From the NCBI GenBank assembly GCA_001897305.1, contig MKSO01000001.1, forward strand, positions 510,001-542,000: DNA of 32,000 bases, written 5' to 3'. Origin of the DNA: Candidatus Saccharimonadota bacterium (GTDB lineage Bacteria; Patescibacteriota; Saccharimonadia; Saccharimonadales; Saccharimonadaceae). Within the stretch, counting starts at the first letter, position 1. Every line of letters starts with the position of its first letter. Below are positions 2,692 through 26,069 of the stretch, in pieces. The notes under the pieces were generated by a model. The model saw only the letters and a program-made list of their open reading frames with translations. It searched no databases and was not told the origin of the DNA. The position numbers were made by a program, and so were the translations under genes.

Positions 2692-3060
2692 TCAGCGACG
2701 CGGAATCAGCACGACGTGTGCCTGGTCTTCGTCGTTGAGGGTGATGGCCGGCATGAGGTTTTGCTCGTTGAGCCGGGTTTTGAGTATGTAGCCGATCGCC
2801 TCGACACCTTGCGACTGCTGGTCGATGTTGGCCAACCCGCAGAAGTACTGGAACTGCTCGATGGACATGAAGTACTCGTCCACCGTTCCGTTGGCGATGG
2901 CTTCGTGAAGAGGCTCTTTGGTAAAGCCTTCACGGACATGCAGGTTTCGGAGCCTCTGGTAGGTGCCGAGAACAATGTTCACCGCATTGGCATCATACAC
3001 CGTACGGACGTACTGTTTGCGCAGCGCTTCGGTGCTTGGGATCGTACTTCCGTTAGGCAC
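2692..3060 (-). CDS. Hypothetical protein, 122 aa, compositionally foreign (high GC, GC-rich third codon positions)
   Basis: GTG start at 3058-3060, preceded by AGGAGG with a 5-nt spacer. The protein is globular-looking (MPNGSTIPSTEALRKQYVRTVYDANAVNIV...) and the stop is TGA. The long antisense ORF 2716-3231 is the kind of shadow expected in GC-rich coding DNA. I recognise no family. Confidence 0.7.
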   Translation of the reverse strand: MPNGSTIPSTEALRKQYVRTVYDANAVNIVLGTYQRLRNLHVREGFTKEPLHEAIANGTVDEYFMSIEQFQYFCGLANIDQQSQGVEAIGYILKTRLNEQNLMPAITLNDEDQAHVVLIPRR

Positions 3061-3083
3061 GGACGCCTCCTGTCAAAAATACG

Positions 3084-3104
3084 CTCCACATCCGGGGTGT
3101 GGAG
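3084..3104 (-). terminator. Terminator-like hairpin (CTCCACA / TGTGGAG, 7-nt loop) followed on the minus strand by CGUAUUUUU
   Basis: 7-bp perfect stem. It lies about 95 nt downstream of the secY stop and immediately upstream of the SD of the 122-aa ORF, so it could be the secY terminator and/or a leader attenuator. Confidence 0.45.
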
Positions 3105-3114
3105 TCATATTTAT

Positions 3115-3123
3115 ATTATACCA
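3115..3123 (-). promoter_or_regulatory. Extended -10 promoter element TGgTATAAT (minus strand) upstream of the 122-aa ORF
   Basis: Forward 3115-3123 is attatacca, whose reverse complement is TGGTATAAT. It lies 54 nt upstream of the GTG start. I saw no convincing -35 element. Confidence 0.35.
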
Positions 3124-3153
3124 CAAAATACATATAAAAGCGAGTATTTGACT

Positions 3154-3213
3154 CTATCGGTCGTAATACTACGGGGTAACAACGCCCGTGGGTTCCTCCC
3201 TATCGGTCGTAAT
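3154..3213. repeat. Exact 14-nt direct repeat CTATCGGTCGTAAT (3154-3167 and 3200-3213), with copy starts 46 nt apart
   Basis: Read directly from the sequence. The second copy is the last four codons plus the stop of secY. The first copy is intergenic. The 32 nt between them contain a small hairpin (ACGGG...CCCGT). Confidence 0.85.
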
Positions 3214-4615
3214 CGTCGTAGGTCACCATAAGGGCGCGCGAGTTGATCTGGCGAAGCGTCTCAAGCCCTACAGATACAACAATCAGCAAACCAGTACCAC
3301 CAATTGAGAGGTTGGTATTTGTAATGCCAGCAAAGTGATAAAGCAAATATTCGGCTGCGAACGGTGTAACAGCAATAAGACCAAGCACAACTGAACCAAA
3401 CAGGATTAAACGATTAACGGTAGTTGTAAGGTATTTCTCGGTTTGCTTACCTGGGCGTACACCTTCAATGAAACCACCTTGCTTCTGAAGGTTTTCGGCA
3501 ATCTCACTGGCATTAAATACAATACCTGTATAGAAGTACGTAAAGAATATAACAAGTACAAAGTACACAATTGGGTAAATAAAGGCTTCTAATGAAGTAC
3601 CTGTGAAGTTGCCTGGGTTAGGTGCTTGGAACCAGGTGATAAGGTTATTCGCCAACACCGCATAGGCTTCATTGCCGGTTGCTTTCAAAATTTGACCGAT
3701 AAAGGCTGGGAGTGACAGAAAAGCGACCGCGAAGATTACAGGAATAACACCGGCAGCGATGAGCTTAATTGGAAGAATACTTTTAATACCACCGTAGCTA
3801 CTATTACCTTGGACACGCTTAGCATAGTTAATTGTGACTACCCGCTGGGCTTCATTAATTTTCACCAAGAAGTACAGCAAGAAGAGCGACACTAACAGTA
3901 TGGCTAATATAGACCAGAACATAGTTGGGTTTACCGGCAATGTGAACCAGTTAAAGACATGGAGTGAACCAGAAGATGTATTGAATAGCGATGTGCCGAA
4001 AGTTGAAAGAATTGAAGGCAGTTGGCTAATAATACCAGCAAAAATGAGGAGGCTAATACCGTTACCTATACCCTGTTCGGTTATAAGCTCACCTAGCCAC
4101 ATAAGTAAAATAGCACCGGCTGACATTGCACCGACAGCTACGATCCACTCGATGGCGGTAGGGTCACCCAGGGCTGTCGAGTTACTCGCAAGCACCGTTT
4201 GACGCAAGATGAAAATATACGCAATTGACTGGACGATCGCCAATGGCACGGTAATCATACGGGTCCACTGGTTAATCTTGCGACGACCAGATTCACCATC
4301 CTTGTGGAGCTCTTCAAGACGCGGGATAGCCTTTGTAAGAAGCTGGGTAATAACCGAGGCGGTAATAAACGGGGTTAGTCCAACGAGAACGATCGAGAAG
4401 CTAGCCAGCGCACCACCGGAAAGTAGGTTCAAGAAACCACCAAAGTCGGTACCGCTCACAACGCTATTTACAACCTCTTTCAGCTGGGTTGGCTCGGCTA
4501 GTGGCACCGGAATGTGCGCCAATAAGCGGTATACGATAATAATACCAAGTACAATTAATAGCCGCTTTTGCATGTCGCGGTTTTTGAGCGATTTAAAGAT
4601 TGTTTTCCAGTTCAT
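3200..4615 (-). CDS. secY: Preprotein translocase subunit SecY
   Basis: 471-aa polytopic membrane protein (MNWKTIFKSLKNRDMQKRLLIVLGIIIVYRLLAHIPVP... through ...GTGLLIVVSVGLETLRQI), located in the canonical position after rplO. Confidence 0.96.
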   Translation of the reverse strand: MNWKTIFKSLKNRDMQKRLLIVLGIIIVYRLLAHIPVPLAEPTQLKEVVNSVVSGTDFGGFLNLLSGGALASFSIVLVGLTPFITASVITQLLTKAIPRLEELHKDGESGRRKINQWTRMITVPLAIVQSIAYIFILRQTVLASNSTALGDPTAIEWIVAVGAMSAGAILLMWLGELITEQGIGNGISLLIFAGIISQLPSILSTFGTSLFNTSSGSLHVFNWFTLPVNPTMFWSILAILLVSLFLLYFLVKINEAQRVVTINYAKRVQGNSSYGGIKSILPIKLIAAGVIPVIFAVAFLSLPAFIGQILKATGNEAYAVLANNLITWFQAPNPGNFTGTSLEAFIYPIVYFVLVIFFTYFYTGIVFNASEIAENLQKQGGFIEGVRPGKQTEKYLTTTVNRLILFGSVVLGLIAVTPFAAEYLLYHFAGITNTNLSIGGTGLLIVVSVGLETLRQINSRALMVTYDDYDR

Positions 4616-7386: not shown

Positions 7387-8670
7387 TCACTTTTCGTGAT
7401 CAGTTGCCTCCGTTAGTCTTTGTTCTATCGCCTTATTAACCAAACTTGAGACCGTGCTATTCATATTTTCAAGCCGCACTCTTTGCATAAAGCCTACAGG
7501 CCCGAGTTTCTTAAACATCTTACCAAAAGTTTCATCAGCAAACGAAGATGATACAATCGCAATCTTATCAAAGTCAACAACTACCGGAAGGCCAGTCTCA
7601 AGCATTAGATTTTCAATGTCATTTCTAATCCTGAAGCCCGATTGCCTAGTACCATAACCTGAAGCTTTCTCATCCAACCTATACATTAATCTCTCTCCTG
7701 TTTCATTAAGAGACGAGAGTACTCGATATGAATCAGGTCGATGTCCATTTAAAGCATTTTCAATATTAATTGGCTTCTGATAATTTATTTGAAAATCGAC
7801 AATTGTACCACCACCCTTTCGCGCATGACTGAGATAAGGCCCTGAATCTTTTGTAATTTGCCCATCATTACCAATATGAATACGCGCTCCACTACTTGTT
7901 ATAGTCATCTCTCCTGTTCCAGATTCTATAATCCTATGCAAACCCCATAAACCGTTTCCTTGATGTTCCGTCTTGCTCCTTGTAACCCCTTCTTTCATTG
8001 CAAGAGTAATGGCATCCATTGAATCGGATGGTTTATAAAAGTCCGATGTACTTAAAGAGTTATATATACCCTGACCTGCGTCCGCCACACAAAAAACGAC
8101 CTGCTTTTGTCCGCTGTGCAACTGGCCCATTACGTAACCTGAGTCGGAATCTGCGTGTTGTAAAACATTATCGACAACTTCATTAAGTGACCACTCCAGT
8201 GACACTAATGCATCCTTATTAGTGATTAACTCTCTTTCTCGAATAGCATCAATAAGCAGAGTAACAATACCAAACACATCCTCGGGACTTTCAAATTTCC
8301 AAACTTTGTTTAATGGATTATTACTATGCTCATTGAAACCAAAACTAATAGGCTCAATGAGACGCTTGTCTACAAATGAGTTAGGCGTCTCATGAAGCCT
8401 AAAAACAACTCCGGAATTAGTTCTTAGGTTGTCACAAAAAGCCGCTAACGGGACTGCTATATTTGCGTATACTGTTTCATTTTTTAGCTTACTGAAATCA
8501 AGGGTGATTTCTTGATAGCCCTCATGTCTAGCTTCTAGAACAGCACTAATAAAATGCCGTAGGGAAATCCGCTCTTTAAGTGAACGTATTATAATCACAC
8601 CGTCTCTACGTTCTATTGCAGAATCATTCAACTTATTCTGCAGTCGCTCTAGTATATTAGGACGTCCCAT
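7387..8670 (-). CDS. GHKL-type ATPase (RsbW/SpoIIAB-like kinase fold) with a C-terminal STAS-like domain and possibly an N-terminal STAS-like domain; 427 aa
   Basis: N-box LNEVVDNVLQHA (E164/N168), G1 box VADAGQGI (D197-x-G-x-G201) and G2 box GNGLWGL (G238-G243). The C-terminal 340-415 segment (VVVDFDKIAIVSSSFADETFGKMF) resembles the STAS-like family I recall as DUF4325. The N-terminal segment ITLDFSKLKNETVYANIAVPLAAFCDNL is also STAS-like. The gene is visibly AT-rich relative to its ribosomal neighbours. Confidence 0.6.
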   Translation of the reverse strand: MGRPNILERLQNKLNDSAIERRDGVIIIRSLKERISLRHFISAVLEARHEGYQEITLDFSKLKNETVYANIAVPLAAFCDNLRTNSGVVFRLHETPNSFVDKRLIEPISFGFNEHSNNPLNKVWKFESPEDVFGIVTLLIDAIRERELITNKDALVSLEWSLNEVVDNVLQHADSDSGYVMGQLHSGQKQVVFCVADAGQGIYNSLSTSDFYKPSDSMDAITLAMKEGVTRSKTEHQGNGLWGLHRIIESGTGEMTITSSGARIHIGNDGQITKDSGPYLSHARKGGGTIVDFQINYQKPINIENALNGHRPDSYRVLSSLNETGERLMYRLDEKASGYGTRQSGFRIRNDIENLMLETGLPVVVDFDKIAIVSSSFADETFGKMFKKLGPVGFMQRVRLENMNSTVSSLVNKAIEQRLTEATDHEK

Positions 8671-14935: not shown

Positions 14936-15549
14936 TATGCTTTACCTCCGATAACGATAAGGCCCTTCTTTGGACCTGGCACAGCACCCTTAAGACCAAT
15001 AAGGTTGTTTTCGGCGTCGATGTAGCTTACGACCAAGTTCTTAACAGTCACTTGTTCGTGTCCCATACGGCCAGCCATTCGCTTACCTTTAAAGACCTTT
15101 TGAGGATACATTGAACCAATTGAACCGGGGCGACGAGTGTTACCCTTACCACCGTGTGTTTTACGGTGACGTTCAAAGTTGTGCCTCTTGATATTTCCGG
15201 CGAAACCTTTACCCTTGCTGATACCGGTAGCGTCCACTACATCACCGATTTCAAAGGTGGTTACGTCGATAGATGCACCGACAGTGAGTTCTTCACTTGG
15301 GTCGTCGATGCGGAACTCGCGAATATACTTCGGAGTTGTGTCGGCTGCCTTAAGGTGTCCAGCCACGGCCTTGCTCAGGTTCTTACCCTCACCAAACCCT
15401 ACTTGCACTGCGTTGTAGCCGTCGGTGTCGACGGTTTTTACCTGAGTCACAGTCACAGGGCCAGCTTGAATCAACGTTACAGGTACTGCACGTCCATCCT
15501 CACTGATGATTTGGGTCATACCAATTTTGGTACCGAGAAGTGCTTTCAT
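14935..15549 (-). CDS. rplC: 50S ribosomal protein L3 (204 aa using the ATG at 15547-15549)
   Basis: MKALLGTKIGMTQIISEDGRAVPVTLIQ... is the canonical L3 start. GGGAGA lies about 9 nt upstream. The ORF-track start at 15684 adds 45 non-L3 residues and runs through the predicted promoter. Confidence 0.94.
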   Translation of the reverse strand: MKALLGTKIGMTQIISEDGRAVPVTLIQAGPVTVTQVKTVDTDGYNAVQVGFGEGKNLSKAVAGHLKAADTTPKYIREFRIDDPSEELTVGASIDVTTFEIGDVVDATGISKGKGFAGNIKRHNFERHRKTHGGKGNTRRPGSIGSMYPQKVFKGKRMAGRMGHEQVTVKNLVVSYIDAENNLIGLKGAVPGPKKGLIVIGGKA

Positions 15550-15654
15550 GCTCTTCATTCTCCCACTTAAAAGCCTCGGTGACAGGTAGTATCCGTAGAC
15601 TTGCCTATTCACTCGAGAACTTGAGTTGTTATTACGTAATAAGTTACAAGGTTG

Positions 15655-15684
15655 ATAATAGCATACTTTTAGGTGTTTCGTCAA
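15655..15684 (-). promoter_or_regulatory. Candidate sigma-70-type promoter for the rplC block: TTGACG-18 nt-TATTAT
   Basis: On the minus strand the -35 element is at 15679-15684 and the -10 element at 15655-15660, leaving a leader of roughly 100 nt before rplC. Confidence 0.45.
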
Positions 15685-15704
15685 GAGTAATTACGGATAA
15701 GCCC

Positions 15705-15733
15705 TTGAATTTCATGCACATACGTTGCATACT
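15705..15733 (+). promoter_or_regulatory. Candidate promoter for the plus-strand small gene: TTGAAT-17 nt-CATACT
   Basis: The -35 element is at 15705-15710 and the -10 element at 15728-15733, about 40 nt upstream of the ATG at 15774. It is divergent from the rplC promoter. Confidence 0.35.
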
Positions 15734-15773
15734 GCTAGATAAGGAAAACCCCAACCAGTTTAAAGGAATAGTT

Positions 15774-16085
15774 ATGGCGACAACGAAAGCAGCAGCCACC
15801 AAGAAAACCCCCACCAAGAAAGCACCCGCTTCGGCTGCTTCGAAGAAAAAAAGTGTTACCACGAAAAAAGTAACTAAAAAAGCCGTGGCTCAGTCACCAG
15901 AAGTTCGTTCATTTAAGGTAGCCAAAAGTTCTCAAAAATTTACAGACTTCAAGCTTAGCCGCCAGACTATTTACTGGATTATCCTCATTGCCTTTATCAT
16001 TTTCGCCCAACTCTGGATCATCAAACTACAAGTTGACATTGGAAGTCTGCTTGACTCACAACAAACGCAAATTACTACCAACTGA
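15774..16085 (+). CDS. Small bitopic membrane protein, 103 aa (K/A/T-rich N-terminus, one TM helix)
   Basis: ATG at 15774, preceded by AAGGA about 7 nt upstream. The sequence is MATTKAAATKKTPTKKAPASAASKKKSVTTKK...TIYWIILIAFIIFAQLWIIKLQV... It is the only credible plus-strand gene in the window and ends at a bidirectional terminator. The ORF-track start at 15540 is an upstream extension through the rplC start. Confidence 0.6.
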   Translation: MATTKAAATKKTPTKKAPASAASKKKSVTTKKVTKKAVAQSPEVRSFKVAKSSQKFTDFKLSRQTIYWIILIAFIIFAQLWIIKLQVDIGSLLDSQQTQITTN

Positions 16086-16664: not shown

Positions 16665-17594
16665 TTAGTAGTAGTACCCTCCGCCAAGAATATCCCAGTA
16701 CTGTTCGAGGGTTTTTATGCCTCTCGCCTGCATATCTTTTGCAACCGCCGTACCGACATAGCGATAATGCCACTCTTCTGCCTTATAGCCTGTGATGTTT
16801 TCATAACCTGCATAGTAGCGCTGAATAAACCCGTAGTCGGCTGCGTTTGCCTGAAGCCATTGGTACTGAGAAGTTGCCCCAAAACAATCTAATACACATG
16901 AACCGGCAGCGACATCAAAAGCCAGGCCGGTCTGATGTTCACTATAGCCAGGGCGAGCACTATAGGTATCAGCCCCCTCTTTTCCACTTACAGACACCCA
17001 ATAATTGTACGTACTTACTTGGTCGCCATAGGATCGATAGCTGCTGGTTACAGAGAAGCCTTGGCCAGCGGCGGCGGCAGCAGCAAAGAGCTGGTTATAT
17101 GCAGAAATTGCCTTGGCGCTTAAGGTCGCTCCGTTGGAAGTCACAAGATCACCCGGCGCGTAACTTAATGGTTGAAGACAATGTTTTTTATTAACCAGCA
17201 CATCAATGTTCGCCGGGTTACTATGAGAGCTTGCCGTGTTACATGCCGATGAATTAATTGTTGATACGGTTGATTCATTAGCCGTTCGAGCTGCGTCGGC
17301 AGCTTCGTTAGCCGCTTTTTCTCTCGCTGCCTTCGCCTCTGCTCTAAGTTTAGCGTTAGCCACCAGCTGATCATTTGCCTTTTTTAGTAACTGCGAGGTA
17401 TTGGCATTAGCCTGACTTATAGATTGGTCAATATGTGCGTTATACCAGTTATTAAATACAAGGCTTGCAAGTAGCGGCAAAATAATAAGCGAAGCAATGA
17501 GCCAATAACGGCGCACGAAAGTGACGGGAGACTTCTTATTTTTTGTCGATTTCACTCTCTCTATAATAGTACTTTTTGGCTTTTGTCCAAACAA
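16665..17594 (-). CDS. Membrane-anchored D-alanyl-D-alanine carboxypeptidase, peptidase M15B (VanY-like)
   Basis: Contains SSYRSY, GYSEHQTGLAFDV and AEEWHYRYVG, the VanY/M15 zinc-peptidase motifs. There is an N-terminal TM helix (YWLIASLIILPLLASLVF) and an A/K/E-rich coiled segment. The start is uncertain: TTG at 17594 lies inside the tuf terminator, and the alternative is GTG at 17553-17555. Confidence 0.85.
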   Translation of the reverse strand: MFGQKPKSTIIERVKSTKNKKSPVTFVRRYWLIASLIILPLLASLVFNNWYNAHIDQSISQANANTSQLLKKANDQLVANAKLRAEAKAAREKAANEAADAARTANESTVSTINSSACNTASSHSNPANIDVLVNKKHCLQPLSYAPGDLVTSNGATLSAKAISAYNQLFAAAAAAGQGFSVTSSYRSYGDQVSTYNYWVSVSGKEGADTYSARPGYSEHQTGLAFDVAAGSCVLDCFGATSQYQWLQANAADYGFIQRYYAGYENITGYKAEEWHYRYVGTAVAKDMQARGIKTLEQYWDILGGGYYY

Positions 17595-17636: not shown

Positions 17637-18818
17637 TTACTTAATGATCTTGGTTACCACACCGGCACCAACAGTCTTACCACCTTCACGAATTGCGAAG
17701 TTAAGACCTTGCTCCATAGCGATAGGCGCGAGAAGCTTTACGGTGAAGGTTACGGTGTCACCAGGGATAACGAGTTCCTTATCAGCAGGAAGCTCAACTT
17801 CACCGGTAACGTCAGTCGTACGGAAGTAGAACTGTGGCTTGTAACCCTTAGAGAATGGAGTGTGGCGACCGCCTTCTTCCTTCTTAAGGATGTACACTTC
17901 AGCTTCAAACTCGGTGTGTGGAGTAATTGAACCTGGCTTAACAATAACCTGGCCACGTTCGATGTCATCACGCTCGATACCACGAAGCAGAAGACCGGCG
18001 TTGTCACCAGCTTGACCGCGGTCAAGGTTCTTCTTGAAGGCCTCGATACCAGTAACAGTTGAGGTTTGAGTTGCCTTAACACCAACAATTTCAACTGGGT
18101 CGTTAATGTTAATAACACCAGTTTCGATACGGCCGGTTGCAACAGTACCACGACCCTTAATTGAGAAGACGTCCTCGATAGGCATCAAGAATGGCTTGTC
18201 AAGGTCACGTACTGGCTCTGGGAAGTACTCGTCCATAGCAGCAACCAATTCCATGATTGCGTCTTCAGCAGCAGCATCACCTTCAAGAGCCTTAGTAGCA
18301 GAACCCTTGATGATTGGAGCGTCTTCGTCGTATCCGTTCTTAGCAAGAAGTTCACGGATGTCCATTTCAACAAGCTCAACCAATTCTGGGTCAGCAAGGT
18401 CCATCTTGTTAAGGAACACAAGGATCTTAGGCACACCAACCTGGTGAGCAAGAAGAACGTGCTCACGAGTTTGTGGCAATGGACCGTCGTTTGCAGCAAC
18501 CACGAGGATTGCACCGTCGATCTGCGCAGCACCGGTGATCATGTTCTTGACATAGTCGGCGTGTCCTGGCATGTCAACGTGAGCGTAGTGACGTGTTGGT
18601 GACTCGTACTCTTGGTGAGAGGTAGCAATGGTAATACCACGTGCACGCTCTTCGGGTGCGTTGTCAATTTGGTCGTAAGCGATAGGTTTGTTTACATCGC
18701 TTGGAAGTTTCTTAGCAAGTACAGCGGTAATAGCTGCAGTTAGGCTGGTCTTACCGTGGTCAACGTGACCCATAGTTCCAACGTTAACGTGAGGCTTGCT
18801 TCGGTCGAAATCTGCCAT
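17637..18818 (-). CDS. tuf: Elongation factor Tu
   Basis: 393-aa ORF with ...[24 protein letters not shown]..., ...[13 protein letters not shown]... and ...[18 protein letters not shown]..., the GTPase G1-G4 motifs. Confidence 0.98.
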
Positions 18819-18882: not shown

Positions 18883-18911
18883 ATTATAGCCTGTTTTTAG
18901 CCGAGAGTAAA
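18883..18911 (-). promoter_or_regulatory. Candidate promoter for tuf: TTTACT-17 nt-TATAAT
   Basis: On the minus strand the -10 element is at 18883-18888 and the -35 element at 18906-18911, immediately downstream of the 128-aa ORF stop. Confidence 0.45.
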
Positions 18912-18920
18912 GAGCCAATG

Positions 18921-19307
18921 TTAGGACGAAGACTGCATATCCACCTGCCAAATATCGGGCATCGTACTGTATTTAATAACCATCTTTTGATGCAACGCTT
19001 TTAGTTTTTCAGAATCGGTCTGGTTGAACTCAAACTGAGATGCTGCATTTCGCAATTTTTCGAGGTCGAACTCTTTGATGCAATCTCGAGCCCTACGAAT
19101 AATTTCCTGCATAAAAATATCGAGTGTTTCGTAGGCAAGCCAGGTATAGACTGCATCTAGACCTACGCCATGCACAATCTTACACCGCACCTGGTACCAA
19201 TATTCTATAAGTGATTGCCAATCATCGACGTTTTGTATTTCACCATTCCAGTGATTTGTTTCGTTTTTTAGGGGCTGCTTTTGCGTGACATCAACCAGAC
19301 GCTTCAT
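18921..19307 (-). CDS. Hypothetical protein, 128 aa, with a HEPN-like Rx4H motif (WYQVRCKIVHG; R41, H46)
   Basis: The ATG overlaps the stop of the upstream ORF (ATGA at 19304-19307). The R codon is at 19185-19187 and the H codon at 19170-19172. The predicted protein is helical. The family call rests on the motif only. Confidence 0.55.
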   Translation of the reverse strand: MKRLVDVTQKQPLKNETNHWNGEIQNVDDWQSLIEYWYQVRCKIVHGVGLDAVYTWLAYETLDIFMQEIIRRARDCIKEFDLEKLRNAASQFEFNQTDSEKLKALHQKMVIKYSTMPDIWQVDMQSSS

Positions 19308-19555
19308 GTAGACTTAAGTGGTGTCATGCTATTGCCAATTCGATAATCCTCCCAGATACCTACTCTTGCTTTTAGTAGCGTAATGGCCTTGCGGTCATTT
19401 GTCGTAACCGTCACTCGACGATACCACGCATTATATGCTGCATATAATAACATGAAGCGTTGCTCGTAATCTATCATTGATTTTTCATACAACTCACATA
19501 CCTTTTCAAATCCAAAAGGAACATTATAGCTGCCATTGTTCGATATGTCCGTCAT
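19304..19555 (-). CDS. Hypothetical protein, 83 aa (88 aa if started at 19570); possible N-terminal half of a split HEPN-like domain
   Basis: The ATG at 19553-19555 overlaps the RadC-like stop (ATGA). The segment RFMLLYAAYNAWYRRVTVTTNDRKAITLLKA resembles the first helices of some HEPN families, from memory and unverified. Confidence 0.5.
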   Translation of the reverse strand: MTDISNNGSYNVPFGFEKVCELYEKSMIDYEQRFMLLYAAYNAWYRRVTVTTNDRKAITLLKARVGIWEDYRIGNSMTPLKST

Positions 19556-20187
19556 AGGACGCTTCCCCATTCTTGACAGGAGGGTCCGTAAACCGCATAT
19601 ATCCCTTTGAGCTTTATGCCTAAAAGTCGTGAGGTTTCGTACATAGAACCCATAAGCCCTATTTCCTGTGGATTTGGCCCTTTAGTGCTATTTTTCGTCA
19701 CGATAAATATATACACGTTGCGAGCATGAACAGTAAGAGCATCGGTAAAAATCCGCTTAGCAATAAGGCTGTAGTGTTCATTTTTCACTAGGGTATACGA
19801 CTTATGATCGATTTCTTTCATAAAGCCGTCTAGCCAATAGCTCACGACTTGATGACCACGTATATTCGCCAGTTCACCAACGTATTTACTAACGAGTTCT
19901 GTCGACTCACGATCACCAGAATTCTCCATCACCATGCGCCGCCCAAGTTCGACCGCACCAAGCAACTGGCAGGCCTTAGCATCACCAAGTCCAACAATAC
20001 CAACAAGCGAGCTATACTGAAAGTTCCCTGCCAAAAGAAGACTTTCGACTCGTTTGGATAATTTTGCCGCCGAAACCCGAGCACTCCCAGAGCCAATAAT
20101 AAGTTGAATGAGCTCAACCAAGCTTAAGTAACGCACCCCTTGAGCACGCAGCTTTTCTCTTGGTTGTTCGTATAAAACTTGCCCCAT
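19552..20187 (-). CDS. RadC-like protein with a degenerate (probably inactive) JAB/JAMM motif, 211 aa
   Basis: The N-terminus PREKLRAQGVRYLSLVELIQLIIGSGSARVSAAKLSKRV...GLGDAKACQLLGAVELGRR matches the RadC helix-hairpin-helix region. In the C-terminal JAB region the expected HNHPSG...PS..D...DH is replaced by VTKNSTKGPNPQE...KG. Confidence 0.7.
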   Translation of the reverse strand: MGQVLYEQPREKLRAQGVRYLSLVELIQLIIGSGSARVSAAKLSKRVESLLLAGNFQYSSLVGIVGLGDAKACQLLGAVELGRRMVMENSGDRESTELVSKYVGELANIRGHQVVSYWLDGFMKEIDHKSYTLVKNEHYSLIAKRIFTDALTVHARNVYIFIVTKNSTKGPNPQEIGLMGSMYETSRLLGIKLKGIYAVYGPSCQEWGSVL

Positions 20188-20239: not shown

Positions 20240-22333
20240 TTATTTATTTGTACGCTTTGCAATAATCTCTTGCATCACGTTTGGTGGTACTTCTTCGTAC
20301 TGGGCAAGTTCCATGGTTGAAGCGGCACGACCTTGGCTCATTGAACGAATGTCGTTGGTGTACCCAAAGAGGTTTGCAAGTGGTACGTAGGCACGAACCA
20401 ACTTAGCACCACCAGGAATGTCTTCCATGGCGTCAATACGGCCACGACGAGAGTTAAGGTCGCCGATGATGTCACCCATGAAATCTTCTGGAGTTGAAAC
20501 TTCAACTTTCATGACAGGCTCAAGGATAACTGGGCGCGCTTGTGGAATACCGGCCTTTACAGCCAATACACCTGCCAAGTTAAAGGCGAGTTCGCTTGAG
20601 TCGACGTCGTGGTAGCTACCATCGTAGAGGGTTGCTTTTACACCAATCATTGGGTAACCAGCGATCACACCGCCCTCGAGCGTATCTTTAATACCCTTCT
20701 GAACTGGTGCGCGGTATTCTTGCGGCACCACACCACCCTTAATTTCGTCAACGAATTCGAAGCCTTCACCAGATTCGGTCGGTTCGAAACGAATCCAAAC
20801 ATCACCATACTGTCCACGACCACCAGATTGCTTAGCATGCTTACCCTGAGCTTCAGCGGTACCACGAATAGTTTCACGGAAGGCCACTTGCGGTTCACCA
20901 ATGTTGGCTTCAACGTTAAATTCACGCTTCATACGGTCAACGAGGATGTCGAGGTGAAGCTCACCCATACCTGACATAATGGTTTGGCCGGTTTCTTCGT
21001 CGGTGTGAATACGGAAGGTTGGGTCTTCTTCGGCTAGACGCTGCAGGGCAATACCCATCTTTTCTTGGTCGGCTTTTGTCTTAGGCTCAACCGCAATCGA
21101 TACAGGAGGTTCTGGGAATTCAATTGACTCAAGTACGATTGGGTGTGCTGGGTCAGACAGAGTATGACCTGTGAAAGTCGTCTTAAGGCCAACAACGGCG
21201 GCGATGTCACCAGCGCCAACGTGGTCGATGTCTTCACGCTTGTCGGCGTGCATACGAACAATACGGCCAATACGCTCTTTTTCACCCGTTGTGGTGTTAA
21301 GCACATAGCTACCAGCTGTAAGCTTACCGCTATATACACGAACAAAGATTAGACGGCCAACGAATGGGTCGCTAGCGATCTTAAAGGCTAGCGCAGAAAG
21401 AGGCTCGCTGTCAGCAGGTTGGCGTTCAACGACATCACCAGTCTTAGGGTTGGTACCCTGAATCGCCTCAACATCAAGCGGCGAAGGCAAGAAGTCGTTT
21501 ACAAGGTCAAGCACCTTTTCAACGATTACACCACGGCCATCACCACCAGTCACGAGGAAGAAGTCACCGGCAAGGACACGCTTGCGAAGCGCACGCTTAA
21601 GCTCTTCAAGAGTGATAGACTCTTCACCTTCTTCAAGGAAACGTTCGAAGAGTTCATCTTCTGCTTCAACTGCTGCTTCAACTAATAGACTGCGAGCATT
21701 CTTGGCTTTTTCAAGCATGTCGGCTGGGATTTCACCTTGAACCAAAGCCTTGTCAGTATAGTCACTGTAGGTGTAGGCTTTCATGTCGAGAAGGTCAACA
21801 AGACCGTTGATGTCCTTTTCAAAGCCAATAGGAAGGTGCACAGGAAGTGCGTGCTTCGAAAGACGGTTGTGAATACTATCGAGAGACTTGTAGAAATCAC
21901 CACCAATTTGGTTAATCTTGTTTACGAAACAAATACGAGGCACGCCGTACTTGTTCGCCTGGCGCCATACGGTCTCGGTCTGAGCTTCAACACCCATCTT
22001 ACCGTCGAACACAGTGACCGCACCGTCGAGGACACGAAGTGAACGCTCAACCTCAGCGGTAAAGTCGATGTGACCTGGCGTGTCAATGATGTTGATCTTG
22101 TGACCCTTCCAGAAACACGTAACAGCAGCAGAGGTAATCGTAATACCACGCTCTTTCTCTTGCGCCATCCAGTCAGTGGTTGCACCGTCGCCGTCGCCAC
22201 GAACTTCACCAATCTTGTGGTTAATACCCGTACGGTACAAAATACCTTCAGTAGTAGTGGTCTTACCCGCGTCAATGTGGGCAATAATACCAATGTTTCG
22301 ATAGTCCTTAAGTGGGACGTTTGCTTGAGCCAT
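20240..22333 (-). CDS. fusA: Elongation factor G
   Basis: 697-aa ORF with ...[21 protein letters not shown]... and ...[23 protein letters not shown]..., showing full five-domain EF-G architecture. Confidence 0.98.
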
Positions 22334-22386: not shown

Positions 22387-22415
22387 ATTATAACAGATAC
22401 TAAGGCCTATGACTA
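22387..22415 (-). promoter_or_regulatory. Candidate promoter for fusA: TAGTCA-17 nt-TATAAT, overlapping the 3' end of the 333-aa ORF
   Basis: On the minus strand the -10 element is at 22387-22392 and the -35 element at 22410-22415. The ORF stop is at 22400-22402. Confidence 0.45.
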
Positions 22416-23401
22416 GTTACTGTATAAAAAGCTTTTCGCAACGATACTATTGATTTGATTGATGATAGTGGTACCGTATATGTCATTGATTCCTGTCGAT
22501 GATCCATAGGGTATACTCGTGACTTAACAACCAATTGGTAGCTGGAAGAAATACTGTTAGTATCTACCATTCTTGGAATCAAGTTGATGTTCGAGAGGTG
22601 GGTCATGGCGCGCATATTAGTGACTTCATAGCATATATTATGGCCCATCTTTTTATCTTTTCGAATAATCGGCCCCTCTATAACCGCTTCGTAAGGCATG
22701 TCCTTGTCAAGAACTATGAGGCCACGTAGATATTCTTTGACACAATTCCTTGATAGAGGGTCACTGAGATCAATCCACTGTTCTATATCCAGGTCAGCAA
22801 CCGCTTCTAATGCTTCTGTTTCGGACATTACACCCAAAAGTCGCCTATCAATTTCATCTACAAACAAAGGATATTGCAAGGTCACCCAATTAAAGGCCCT
22901 TTCTTTTGATGCTTTATCTGTATCAACAATAACGTCAGTAAGCTTACCAGTAGCTCTTACGTACTGCTCGCCCTCAGGCGGATTTGGTACACAGTCTGCG
23001 GGAACAACAAAGTCATGTAATAGTTCAGAATAAGATCGGTCATCTTTAATAGCCGACGTAGTGACTGCATTAAAACCGTTTGAGATAACCGTCGTATCCC
23101 AGAGTATTGCTTGACTTCTCTGTCCTTTACCATCTCTGTACTCAATCAACCCTCGAACCTTAAGCTTTTCTCCTAACCACTCCCCCCACTTGCGGTCAAA
23201 TTCCGCTACAATCTCCTGCCTGTGCTGTAAGCTGTTGGGTATAGTTGTAAGTAGTTCATTAGCCGAGTAGGCTTCGGAGAGAACTCTATCCATAGCAGGT
23301 TCGCGTAATAGACCAATTTGCTCCTCAAGGGCGGCGAGCGATCCATCGCTAACCTCAAGATTATTCGCATTGTTGTCGAAAGACTCATTTTCTGCTGACA
23401 T
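22400..23401 (-). CDS. Hypothetical protein, 333 aa (cassette ORF4), no recognisable domain
   Basis: ATG preceded by AAGAGGA 7 nt upstream and 18 nt after the ORF3 stop. The N-terminus is acidic and the rest appears mixed alpha/beta. The DNA is AT-rich. Confidence 0.7.
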   Translation of the reverse strand: MSAENESFDNNANNLEVSDGSLAALEEQIGLLREPAMDRVLSEAYSANELLTTIPNSLQHRQEIVAEFDRKWGEWLGEKLKVRGLIEYRDGKGQRSQAILWDTTVISNGFNAVTTSAIKDDRSYSELLHDFVVPADCVPNPPEGEQYVRATGKLTDVIVDTDKASKERAFNWVTLQYPLFVDEIDRRLLGVMSETEALEAVADLDIEQWIDLSDPLSRNCVKEYLRGLIVLDKDMPYEAVIEGPIIRKDKKMGHNICYEVTNMRAMTHLSNINLIPRMVDTNSISSSYQLVVKSRVYPMDHRQESMTYTVPLSSIKSIVSLRKAFYTVTSHRP

Positions 23402-23419
23402 AACTATCCTCTTTGACTA

Positions 23420-24109
23420 TCAATGGTCCAAAAGTTCGGCGAATTGAGCGTCCCAATCAATGTCATGTGCTGATTGCGCAAGCGCCTGCATTACTGCCCG
23501 CTCCTGCTTTGCGAAAAGTATTTCATGCTGATTGAAGGCTAGTTTCGCAACGGCTCCCGTGCCCGTTTCAAACATACGCTGCTTAGTAACGTCTTTGACA
23601 AACCGTTCACTCCAATGCTCAATAATATCGTTTGTCTGAGGACCCATTAGAACGAGCCCTCGGTGTCCCATATTTAAAATAGCTTCACTAATTTGATGAT
23701 GCGTATGTGCTTCATCATCAGTGTTATTTTCAATCCCACCTAGCTCAACATTGGAATATAACCGCAACGGCGAGAGTGCAGAACCGTGCGCTTCATATAT
23801 CAAAAGAGCACCAGCAGTCGCCCCAAGGTAAAAAGCCTCTTTAGACCTACGGTCTGAATCAATGAATTCACCGGTTGAGCGATCCATTGGCTCTACAAAG
23901 GCCGCTAACCGCTCCGTTTCTTGAAGAAAATTCTTAAAAGAATGTTTGTTTTGAAGAAATCGTGAATAAGCTACATCTATTGTAGTCTCGGATAAAACTG
24001 CATCTATCTTTTGAGCTGCAGTAAAATATTCGTCGTGAGTAGGGAGTTCTGGTATTGTCGGTTCGGGCATAGCAATCATTATACCCCGCACATCACGTGA
24101 CTCAAGCAT
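23420..24109 (-). CDS. Hypothetical protein, 229 aa by the ORF track (cassette ORF3), a paralogue of ORF1; the true start may be the ATG at 24068-24070 (216 aa)
   Basis: Collinear similarity to the 240-aa protein. From M14 the N-terminus MPEPTIPELPTHDEY parallels MLPTPEQLPTPNDY of ORF1. Confidence 0.7.
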   Translation of the reverse strand: MLESRDVRGIMIAMPEPTIPELPTHDEYFTAAQKIDAVLSETTIDVAYSRFLQNKHSFKNFLQETERLAAFVEPMDRSTGEFIDSDRRSKEAFYLGATAGALLIYEAHGSALSPLRLYSNVELGGIENNTDDEAHTHHQISEAILNMGHRGLVLMGPQTNDIIEHWSERFVKDVTKQRMFETGTGAVAKLAFNQHEILFAKQERAVMQALAQSAHDIDWDAQFAELLDH

Positions 24110-24126
24110 AAGCTAGGTAGTAGCAA

Positions 24127-25242
24127 CTAGACTCGTGTTATAGGCGTTCCAAACTCTGGAAAGTGCTTCACAACCTCATCATTTCGATGGAACCGCATCA
24201 AGCCACTAGAAGCTATATCATCAAACCTCACAAGGCCTTGTTGATAAAGACGGAGTGTTTCACGAAATTGAGTTGCAATATTTTCAATAGCCAATTCCTC
24301 ATCCACACTGGCCCCTCCTCTAACAAAGCGGCTAAATGCATCTACGGTACCGGACGGATCGTCTTCGTTGATTGTTAAGCGCACCCCTCCTGGAACAACG
24401 AGCGCATTATAGCGACGTTTTGCCCTTTTTGTGAGGCGTGATTTTATTTCTATCGGAATGACTTTACGAATATTCCCCCAATGTTGGTTGACTATCATAA
24501 TGTCATGGGTTTGTCTGGCATTGTAAAGCCCTGACCCCCCTCTTACCGTAGATAGTAGTGGCACGTACCGTGGGTCATCAATAACTAGAGCGGCCATAAG
24601 TGCTATTGCTTCAAACAATAGTCCTTTGTGCTGCGCCTGCATTGCCCAATCATCTTGTTCAATTGCCGCTTGATATTCGATGTTAATACTGTCAGTAATA
24701 TGCGCTATGTCCGCCAATACCGATGCCATCACTCCATTACTAACATTCCCTACGATGATCGACTTTACTAGTGGCATTGTCGCTAAATTTAATGCAGTCC
24801 GATGGCCACCGTATTCATTGCGATCACCTACTTCAAATGTTAAATTTCTTCCTGCGTAAAGTTCGCTCACAAGTTGTCTTTGCCAAATTTGTTCACCCCT
24901 CATCGCTATAGCTAATCGATCAACAGCTGACGTGTCTGCCGCTAATAATGAAGCCTCTACATAAGCTGATCCTGCCGCTCTAAGATATTCTGGATACGTT
25001 TCTGATTCAAGTTTTTGACCATATTCAACCAGAATGTCCGGGCTTACAGCATCAGTCATTGATTTACTCAGTGTCATATATTCACGATAATCTTCATTAA
25101 GAAGATATCGATAATACCCTCCCGGCTGATCATATTCGCTCAAGCAATTTGGGTCAAAAGACTCGGGGGCGTCAAAATATAATGCAGATTTGAGGGCGTC
25201 ACTTCCAGGGAGGGGTGCATGAAAAACCCTCTCCCGTGGCAT
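24127..25242 (-). CDS. Hypothetical protein, 371 aa (cassette ORF2), with a PD-(D/E)xK nuclease-like core in the C-terminal half
   Basis: E211 (GLLFEAIALMAAL), D247 (QTHDIMIVN) and E265-I-K267 (VIPIEIKSRLTKRAKRRY) show the spacing typical of the restriction-endonuclease fold. The codons were verified at 24610-24612, 24502-24504 and 24442-24450. AAAGGA is the SD. The N-terminal roughly 200 aa are unassigned. Confidence 0.65.
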   Translation of the reverse strand: MPRERVFHAPLPGSDALKSALYFDAPESFDPNCLSEYDQPGGYYRYLLNEDYREYMTLSKSMTDAVSPDILVEYGQKLESETYPEYLRAAGSAYVEASLLAADTSAVDRLAIAMRGEQIWQRQLVSELYAGRNLTFEVGDRNEYGGHRTALNLATMPLVKSIIVGNVSNGVMASVLADIAHITDSINIEYQAAIEQDDWAMQAQHKGLLFEAIALMAALVIDDPRYVPLLSTVRGGSGLYNARQTHDIMIVNQHWGNIRKVIPIEIKSRLTKRAKRRYNALVVPGGVRLTINEDDPSGTVDAFSRFVRGGASVDEELAIENIATQFRETLRLYQQGLVRFDDIASSGLMRFHRNDEVVKHFPEFGTPITRV

Positions 25243-25346
25243 ATTAGTCCTTTTTCAACTTTCTGAATATATTGATTTTTGCTCCCATTTGCTTATGGTT
25301 ATACACCACACTCAAATATTTGGAAAGACTTTTTTGTTTTAAAAAT

Positions 25347-26069
25347 TTACGCATCACCCTGAAATTCACGCCAATGCCTATCCCAGTCACTTTCGGTATC
25401 CGTAGTCATATTATTTAAATCATTCTTATCAACAATTTCGTTAAAATCACCGTGGAGTCGCCGCTGGACGGCTTCAAACAAACTCTGACGAGAAGCGAAA
25501 TCGGCATCTATAATAATACCTACGCCTACTTGCACCATTCCTTCGGCTTCTGAATTGCTCGTATGGAGCAGTATTTCTTCCCACAGTTCAATGATTTCTT
25601 TACTTGTCGAAAGCGCACCCATCCCCCATCGTCCTGCAATATGAAGTTGGTCGAACAGTACAGCACGGTCCCCAACCTCATTGGCCCGATACTCAGCCGC
25701 GCGAAGCACAACATCAACGCCCTTGTTAATACGGGTTATATGCTCTGGCGTGGAATCAGGTGACGTTCGATGCATTGTATCCGTCAATAAAGAGCCTACT
25801 AGCATACCGTCTTGTAGAGCCTTCGCAGTTGCTTGTGCATCTTCAGTATGTGACCACGCTGGATTTGCATCACCCATACTCATCATCACAGACAAGTTAT
25901 TGACTCGTTGCAAAAAGTCTCTTCCCCTTCTGCTACGAAAAAGACCATTGCCGGAGAATCGGTCAATGGTCTTTCGTGGTCCACCCTCGCTCGCAAATAG
26001 TCGATCAAGCGCAATTGTAGCTCGACGATAATCATTAGGAGTAGGAAGTTGTTCCGGTGTCGGAAGCAT
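25347..26069 (-). CDS. Hypothetical protein, 240 aa (cassette ORF1), a paralogue of ORF3
   Basis: It starts 28 nt after the rpsG stop with no intervening hairpin. The protein is mostly helical. I recognise no family. Confidence 0.7.
   Translation of the reverse strand: MLPTPEQLPTPNDYRRATIALDRLFASEGGPRKTIDRFSGNGLFRSRRGRDFLQRVNNLSVMMSMGDANPAWSHTEDAQATAKALQDGMLVGSLLTDTMHRTSPDSTPEHITRINKGVDVVLRAAEYRANEVGDRAVLFDQLHIAGRWGMGALSTSKEIIELWEEILLHTSNSEAEGMVQVGVGIIIDADFASRQSLFEAVQRRLHGDFNEIVDKNDLNNMTTDTESDWDRHWREFQGDA

Follow-up and report, generated by a model that had tools for sequence, protein, structure and literature searches.

A RadC-like pseudo-enzyme and a probable HEPN protein at a fixed place between fusA and tuf in one clade of Saccharibacteria

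What occupies the normally empty gap between the genes of the translation factors EF-G (fusA) and EF-Tu (tuf) in a Saccharibacteria genome, and is it a recent arrival or an old resident? The question is raised by a 32,000-nucleotide (nt) stretch of contig MKSO01000001.1 (positions 510,001 to 542,000; hereafter the window), which carries the rpoC - rpsL - rpsG - ... - fusA - ... - tuf - ... - rpsJ - rplC ribosomal super-operon of a member of the Saccharibacteria (TM7). The order on its minus strand is fusA (20240..22333, 697 amino acids (aa)), a 52-nt spacer, three open reading frames (ORFs) of 211 aa (19552..20187), 83 aa (19304..19555) and 128 aa (18921..19307), a 102-nt spacer, and tuf (17637..18818). 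The three intervening products are recorded as OJU97067, OJU97066 and OJU97065 of 'Candidatus Saccharibacteria bacterium 47-87'. A preliminary description of this DNA gave the ORF sizes and two ATGA stop/start overlaps (19552-19555 and 19304-19307) exactly, and interpreted them as three coupled genes, an inactive RadC-like protein and a HEPN-like pair, carried by a small mobile cassette that had inserted between these two genes. Here we report that the three apparently coupled genes, a plausible misreading, are two, one of which is frameshifted; that this pair has a fixed place in the str operon of a whole clade; and that the second gene, termed X, probably encodes a member of the HEPN superfamily.

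A single gene of about 211 aa has been cut into the 83-aa and 128-aa ORFs. When joined, their sequence matches 197 single proteins in a protein search; the homologues listed are mostly of 202-226 aa with query coverage of 82-100%, one of them being of 211 aa at 98% identity, and the junction in relatives reads PLK(A/S)YMKRLVD. The 83-aa ORF aligns to residues 1-82 of intact 211-aa homologues and comprises the predicted N-terminal core helices, a YNAWY motif (19421-19435, minus strand) and the first part of an insert; the 128-aa ORF aligns to residues 84-211 and comprises the rest of the insert, the helix with the Rx4H motif, a long helix and a clade-specific tail. L001 and L002, two contigs of 99.2-99.5% identity to the window, were aligned with it at the DNA level, which places the frameshift at 19309..19312 (minus strand). 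At the junction these contigs read AAGGCTTACATG and the window reads AAG-TCTACATG: one T of a TT pair has been lost at 19310 (TCTTAC->TCTAC), and a G>T change is found at 19312. The deletion converts TCT TAC ATG AAG into TCT ACA TGA, so that the new stop overlaps a conserved internal Met codon. The second ATGA (19304-19307, minus strand), taken earlier for a hallmark of coupling, is hence a product of the frameshift, and the supposed HEPN-like pair is one protein cut in two.

The split is very recent, since an intact allele (P0400) encodes a protein that is the same as the X of the window except for ...PLKSYMKRL... across the junction. It is also widespread: the exact 128-aa and 83-aa products were found on 39 and 41 contigs, respectively (106 index blocks), from NCBI (including the metagenome-assembled genome (MAG) 'Ca. 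Saccharibacteria bacterium 47-87'), JGI, ENA and Logan assemblies, with scaffolds of 0.9 and 1.3 Mb among them, and all 24 of the split-allele contigs that were read share one set of neighbouring genes. Most contigs of its species-level cluster carry the split allele (about 39 vs about 9 with intact alleles). An assembly or sequencing error was considered as the cause and ruled out by the occurrence of the same split products on about 40 contigs from several sources. In one related contig (L030, 542-2678), fusA is called as two ORFs of 624 and 106 aa, probably through an assembly frameshift in an essential gene; single-contig frameshifts therefore need a multi-sample check, which the split of X has passed.

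The place of the pair was compared among 19 distinct related loci, drawn from one near-identical strain, from three contigs of metagenomes or MAGs and from 15 species representatives, the complete genome TM7i among them. All 19 have the order fusA - (0 to 3.6 kb of variable genes) - RadC-like gene - X - tuf - ... - rpsJ (S10) on one strand, X is a single ORF in every one of them, and the distance from X to tuf is 45-135 nt in 18. The start codon overlaps the RadC-like stop codon by 1-14 nt in 17 of the 19 relatives. This overlap is conserved above chance and is consistent with translational coupling, as had been proposed for the ATGA at 19552..19555 (minus strand). Identity to the window proteins across the loci is 88-98% for EF-G and EF-Tu (88-96% for EF-G), 35-57% for X and 26-50% for the RadC-like protein; the rate of evolution of the two latter proteins is 5-8 times higher than that of the adjacent translation factors. 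No plasmid match was obtained for the long form of X. The G+C content of the pair is 41-45% vs 48-52% in fusA and tuf, and the other lineage-specific genes of the window share the lower value, so that composition is no mark of recent arrival. As judged from this conserved synteny, the RadC-like/X pair is old, vertically inherited and long co-resident at one locus of one Saccharibacteria clade. The recurrence of the arrangement in other genomes, which the preliminary description had envisaged for three genes, holds in all 19 loci for two genes, with X unsplit.

The upstream partner has the two-domain layout of RadC, an N-terminal helix-hairpin-helix (HhH) domain followed by a degenerate JAB domain. 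Its residues 7-73 (19969..20169, minus strand) match the Pfam family PF20582 (UPF0758_N) with E=2.3e-12 and 47 bits vs a 27-bit cut-off, and residues 10-193 match the NCBIfam RadC equivalog with E=1.5e-14 and 54 bits vs a cut-off of 180. The retention of the HhH part proposed earlier is borne out by these matches, and so is the loss of the JAMM metal ligands by alignment. The JAMM motif (Glu ... His-x-His ... Ser-x-x-Asp) takes the form HNHPSG..PS..D..DH in RadC. Two canonical RadC proteins, P0132 and P0133, carry SHNHPSGQLKPSMAD...LDH, and the window protein has IVTKNSTKGPNPQE...KGI there, the degenerate region VTKNSTKGPNPQE replacing HNHPSG..PS..D at 19663..19701 (minus strand). In the same alignment, the His-x-His is absent from the RadC-like copies of all 19 clade members. 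The protein is, by these alignments, a clade-wide pseudo-enzyme in which the HhH domain has been kept and the JAB metal site is predicted to be dead.

The case for X as a HEPN protein begins with its Rx4H motif. RCKIVH, pointed out in the preliminary description, is present at 19170..19187 (minus strand); its Arg and His are R41 and H46 of the 128-aa ORF and R124 and H129 in intact-protein numbering, and R124, C125, H129 and G130 are invariant in 120 homologues. The alignment of X contains 21 invariant and 41 near-invariant columns, including the C-terminal tail SPDIWQVDM that is specific to the clade (PDIWQVDM at 18936-18959, minus strand). HEPN domains are defined by a four-helix core with Rx4-6H at the end of core helix 3 and the start of the loop to helix 4; an insert is often found between helices 2 and 3, and the Arg is followed by a polar residue, mostly N, D or H (PMC3710099). 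In the AlphaFold2 (AF2) model of intact X (pLDDT 86), the helix of residues 113-128 ends at R124..H129, from where a loop leads on to a long helix of residues 135-162; as in the short relative, a helical insert precedes the motif. The AF2 model of a short relative, P0226 (pLDDT 94, pTM 0.89), contains helices 3-18 and 26-45, three insert helices, and helices 114-129 and 138-156, with R125..H130 at the end of helix 114-129. The position of Rx4H in these predicted models matches the published HEPN definition.

Profile comparisons connect X to a wider family. An exhaustive profile search recovered 263 representative proteins, of which the distant relatives are of about 160 aa and carry the motif EFWYxVR[NC]NLFHGxK, with Asn (RNNLFHG, the classical R-N-x3-H) or Cys (RCNLFHG) after the Arg. 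X is joined to this short R[CN]NLFHG family by hhalign with 99.2% probability and E=7e-20. Arg and His are both invariant in the short family (118 sequences); in the merged superfamily alignment (97 sequences) the Arg is invariant and the His at least 90% conserved. A feature of the Saccharibacteria X is the additional, highly conserved C-terminal tail ...K-Y-x3-P-D-I-W-Q-V-D-M. Against 177,635 PDB sequences, the best match of the merged superfamily profile was the HEPN region of Ec2ApeA (E=1.1e-3), with the X-family Arg aligned on R502 and the His on H507, followed by two variants (E=3e-3) and Ec3ApeA (0.31). ApeA is a tRNA anticodon nuclease, and the R502A substitution abolishes its defence activity (bioRxiv 10.64898/2026.01.26.701840). 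The clade-only X profile gave low-complexity PDB matches only, and the ApeA match appeared after the profile had been broadened.

Searches with curated models gave weaker signals. Positions ~231-336 of the 341 positions of the PADLOC DzbB model were matched by 20 of 34 distant members, with E down to 2.8e-6; residues 28-50 of the 128-aa ORF of the window match DzbB positions 287-309 weakly (E=0.017). Single weak matches fell on Cas13-ApeA, Cas13a and CARF_HEPN, and weak Pfam matches on HEPN_RiboL-PSP (best 2.4e-3, two of 83 members) and HEPN_Apea (best 0.084). The separate 83-aa and 128-aa ORFs had nothing significant in Pfam, NCBIfam or PADLOC. When Pfam was applied to the 120 clade members, the 25 most-matched families shown included no HEPN family and no significant match; the most frequent one, wHTH-HSP90_Na-assoc (18 members, best E=0.003), was judged to be noise. 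On the combined evidence of motif, models and profiles, X probably belongs to the HEPN superfamily, and it is probable, to a somewhat lower degree, that it acts as an RNase. Its superfamily (R[CN]xLFHG) would constitute a Pfam-less HEPN branch with members in defence islands.

The neighbourhoods of the short relatives are of the defence type. One lies beside DpnII and a 1046-aa AAA_21/SMC_N ATPase (L023), another overlaps a type IIG restriction-modification gene that is followed by a UvrD helicase (L025), and a third is near Abi_alpha (L024). On a Sphingomonas plasmid, a short relative follows Dam, DpnII, SMEK and DUF2326 genes, and on a Methylocystis plasmid one follows an AAA ATPase, near Fic and ubiquitin-like conjugation genes. 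A separate observation is that several short relatives are located downstream of a large ABC/AAA-type ATPase (AAA_21/SMC_N, DUF2326 or AAA; L023 1-5583, L028 1-5513, L027 3432-5552), twice beside DpnII restriction-modification and once with a SMEK-domain protein; these ATPase-linked relatives may represent an undescribed family of defence-system effectors.

The link between X and its partner is seen in more than one form. In a sister sub-clade, an 89-aa HhH-only gene without JAB stands directly upstream of X (L029, 2728-2997; L031, 2-112), and P0183, seen only on a 1.8-kb contig, is a fusion of HhH and X in one protein. There are three architectures (HhH-deadJAB + X, HhH-only + X, and the HhH-X fusion), which suggest a functional and probably physical link of UPF0758_N to X. 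The HhH domain is probably the part that acts as partner of X, and the dead JAB domain looks dispensable.

The same sub-clade presents interrupted forms of X. An in-frame stop codon occurs at the otherwise invariant Trp W103 in L029 (X at 3001-3450, stop at 3277-3279), L031 (X at 102-545) and L042 (~5668); it is TGA in the first two, and the codon of L042 was not read. The close relatives L035, L040, L041 and L049 keep Trp at this position. The metagenome scan used a degenerate DNA pattern. In L029 and L031, X has TGG at its five remaining Trp codons; vanY of L029 genuinely ends at a TGA, and fusA and tuf contain no in-frame TGA. Between L029 and L031, the proportion of synonymous differences (pS) is 0.75 upstream and 0.87 downstream of the stop, both being saturated, and that of nonsynonymous differences (pN) is 0.37 upstream and 0.27 downstream; all invariant residues downstream of the stop are kept in L029, L031 and L042. 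Since the three carriers are not monophyletic in a simple neighbour-joining tree, either TGG and TGA have been exchanged repeatedly or an old TGA has been kept and sometimes reverted. In both cases, X downstream of the in-frame stop is by these measures under purifying selection, which suggests read-through of UGA plus a premium on low levels of full-length X. Insertion of Trp at UGA is leaky in bacteria. The frameshift of the window may be a third route to a low level of full-length X, or simply a recent loss. In another sub-group, P0219 (95 aa) is an N-terminal X fragment that ends just before the expected invariant Trp, and could be a fourth case of a stop at W103.

We read the locus, with a probability of about 0.6, as a vertically inherited, fixed module in a toxin-antitoxin (TA)-like layout, in which an HhH/pseudo-RadC protein is paired with a probable HEPN RNase. 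Its first gene would be a RadC paralogue with an intact nucleic-acid-binding HhH domain (UPF0758_N) and a dead JAB site, and its second gene, X, a member of a Pfam-less HEPN branch, other members of which are found in defence islands; the module would descend from a defence-island family. X would dimerise like HEPN RNases, its invariant Arg and His cutting RNA without a metal. The HhH partner, made in a fixed ratio by way of the overlapping stop and start codons, would bind X and either restrain it or bring it to a nucleic-acid target. The module would correspond to a type II TA or abortive-infection layout that has settled permanently in the chromosome. The dosage of full-length X seems to matter, in view of the recent 1-nt split in the window lineage and the UGA at the invariant Trp in the sister sub-clade. 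A bolder proposal, that UPF0758_N, a domain whose function has been obscure for decades, is in this lineage a dedicated partner of a HEPN RNase, that the pair has been domesticated and linked to translation, and that full-length X is limited by recoding (UGA read-through, stop-start split), is speculative and in our estimation unlikely.

Several observations weigh against this fixed-module reading, and some of them concern the nature of X. Foldseek searches with both models against PDB and with the X model against BFVD gave no match at E<0.1, with TM at most 0.26. No Pfam or NCBIfam HEPN model is significant on any X-family member, the residue after the Arg is an invariant Cys in the clade of the window and not N, D or H, and the ApeA link at E=1e-3 is not overwhelming. 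The same results would suit an X that is no RNase at all, with Rx4H placed in a non-catalytic, nucleic-acid- or ligand-binding helical domain, possibly outside HEPN, and acting together with the RadC-like protein on DNA (uptake, repair); a role in nucleic-acid processing has been put forward for RadC domains, which occur fused to HhH domains (PMC5512222). We regard this as doubtful, given that the ApeA HEPN match brings the catalytic residues into register, that the motif position is exactly HEPN-like and distant relatives carry RNxxxH, and that several independent weak matches all fall on HEPN families. HEPN folds are very divergent, and the authors of the ApeA study needed GT-align (bioRxiv 10.64898/2026.01.26.701840); we treat the Foldseek result as a failed test and not as disproof of HEPN. 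The HEPN RNase of the preliminary description survives as a probable HEPN member, by motif position and the profile match to ApeA, and lacks a match at the level of the fold.

The remaining difficulties concern the module as a whole. Toxin-antitoxin and defence genes typically have a patchy distribution, and confinement to one fixed locus throughout a clade is unusual among them. Southlakia epibionticum has no annotated RadC and has short, non-essential hypothetical genes upstream of tuf (supplement of PMC10633639), and the pair is therefore no general requirement of Saccharibacteria. A Mantel (mirror-tree) test of co-evolution between X and the RadC-like protein was uninformative (r=0.17, p=0.08), as was the same test for vertical descent against EF-G and EF-Tu, because the distances are saturated or star-like. 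The split allele is young, and the split X may or may not still function. Simple decay in this strain is a possible but clearly less favoured account, and one compatible with the main reading: the frameshift would have killed X, the ATGA would be accidental, the two ORFs useless, and the RadC-like gene might follow. The break does part the N-terminal core helices from the Rx4H helix, no Shine-Dalgarno-like sequence precedes the second ATG, the protein of P0400 is otherwise identical, a cell would be expected to tolerate losing a toxin-like gene, and Southlakia lacks an annotated RadC or a gene of the size of X at the locus. Decay fits less well with the majority status of the split allele in its cluster, with a break that lies within the insert between predicted core helices, where HEPN domains tolerate insertions (ApeA itself has been described as a split HEPN domain; bioRxiv 10.64898/2026.01.26.701840), with overlapping stop and restart codons that favour reinitiation, and with the purifying selection on interrupted X in the sister sub-clade.

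Fixation could also mean that X is a housekeeping factor of RNA processing or translation (cf. eukaryotic Las1), recruited by HhH and co-expressed with EF-G and EF-Tu. The constant position upstream of tuf in the whole clade, the strong conservation of X up to its SPDIWQVDM tail, and a relative (P0208) directly after aspS are in its favour. An essential role sits badly with a widespread frameshift allele and in-frame stops, the pair is unannotated in S. epibionticum, the nearest wider relatives are defence-island genes, and both proteins change far faster than the adjacent translation factors; we consider this explanation unlikely. The recent mobile three-gene TA or defence cassette, with a pseudo-RadC adaptor and two HEPN-like proteins, could point to ATGA-chained small ORFs in a normally empty gap, to distant X relatives in defence islands and on a few plasmids, and to the low G+C of the pair. 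It is largely refuted by synteny, the pair standing between fusA and tuf in all 19 diverged relatives; its two HEPN-like ORFs belong to a single gene, plasmids gave no match to the long form, and the low G+C is common to other lineage-specific genes of the window. Hardly any weight is left to it.

What the locus shows, on the fixed-module reading, is that a module with the look of a TA system can be a long-standing and fixed part of the str operon in a symbiont lineage with a reduced genome. The Pfam-less HEPN branch would bring together genes of Saccharibacteria, genes of defence islands, and the C-terminal parts of ApeA and DzbB (Dazbog). The three architectures tie the enigmatic HhH domain of RadC to X, and offer a clue to the binding targets of RadC-type proteins; the repeated interruption of X can serve as a natural experiment on how the dosage of a probable RNase is controlled. 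Two-gene HEPN modules have been described before, as have inactive JAB domains. We found no record of the Pfam-less HEPN branch, of the pairing with a RadC-type HhH domain, of fixation in the str operon or of the interruption pattern, and literature searches returned no paper that pairs RadC with HEPN and none on HEPN in Saccharibacteria.

Other features of the window concern its regulation and its passengers. A promoter-like site in the 102-nt spacer between X and tuf (18883-18911) is a consensus match only, promoter and terminator counts in the window are no higher than in shuffled sequence, and Rfam and tRNA scans found no RNA genes in it. Lineage-specific genes break up the str operon of these bacteria at several points. 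Between rpsG (S7) and fusA, four consecutive Pfam-less ORFs of 333, 229, 371 and 240 aa occupy 22400-26069 (minus strand), and relatives (L003) likewise have unannotated genes there. A VanY-type D-Ala-D-Ala carboxypeptidase gene (16665-17594, minus strand; Pfam E=2e-35) lies between tuf and rpsJ, a position repeated in many relatives, e.g. L006, L007, L008, L010, L011 and L029. An odd passenger among the ribosomal-protein genes (7387-8670, minus strand) encodes 427 aa, with a histidine-kinase-like ATPase domain and, at the C-terminus, a STAS-like DUF4325. On the opposite strand, between rplC and rpsJ, a Pfam-less 181-aa ORF (15540-16085, plus strand) with a Lys/Thr/Ala-rich middle and a hydrophobic C-terminal stretch is perhaps not a real gene. 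In S. epibionticum, SEML1_0477-0485 between fusA and tuf include genes for an adenylate cyclase and for an ABC transporter substrate-binding protein, and two short hypothetical ones beside tuf, and the listed genes are non-essential (supplement of PMC10633639); the gap therefore seems to be a site that generally accepts lineage-specific genes in Saccharibacteria.

Among known systems, the first gene is closest to canonical RadC (YicR; UPF0758, PF20582 + PF04002), with which it shares the two-domain layout, a recognisable HhH domain and a full-length but weak similarity. Canonical RadC has the His-x-His and the distal Asp-His of the JAMM site, both of which are replaced throughout the clade of the window, and it has the JAB part that the partner in the sister sub-clade has lost entirely. 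For X, the likeness to DzbB of Dazbog (PADLOC PDLC03836) is limited to the C-terminal third of the model. Dazbog contains a DUF262 protein (PMC10952713), assigned here to DzbA, whereas X has fusA, the RadC-like gene and tuf as neighbours; no domain description of DzbB was found in literature searches. The best solved-structure match of the X superfamily profile is ApeA (PDB 9hxb; PF18739), over about 100 residues with Arg and His in register, and a helical domain with large insertions is common to the two. The 593-aa ApeA carries N-terminal and Mid domains in a single chain, assembles into decamers and is activated by deoxydinucleotides, whereas X is a protein of about 210 aa with a separate HhH/pseudo-RadC partner, encoded by a fixed chromosomal gene.

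The layout of small, adjacent, co-directional genes with overlapping stop and start codons (ATGA, 19552-19555) is that of type II TA systems; the patchy and mobile distribution of such systems is not shared by the pair, which stands at the same locus in all 19 relatives and has no plasmid match. Hints at a growth-arresting toxin neutralised by a bound partner are indirect, and consist of the recurrent interruption of X and the HhH-X fusion. The nearest parallel in organisation is provided by the HEPN-MNT (HepT-MntA) modules, which likewise consist of two small, co-directional, overlapping genes with the partner first and the HEPN gene second, and in HEPN toxins of two-gene modules Rx4H is essential (PMC4621449, PMC3710099). 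The HEPN-MNT partner is a nucleotidyltransferase, and that of X is an HhH + dead-JAB RadC paralogue; HEPN-MNT modules are patchy and mobile, whereas the RadC-like/X module appears to be a single-locus, vertically inherited one.

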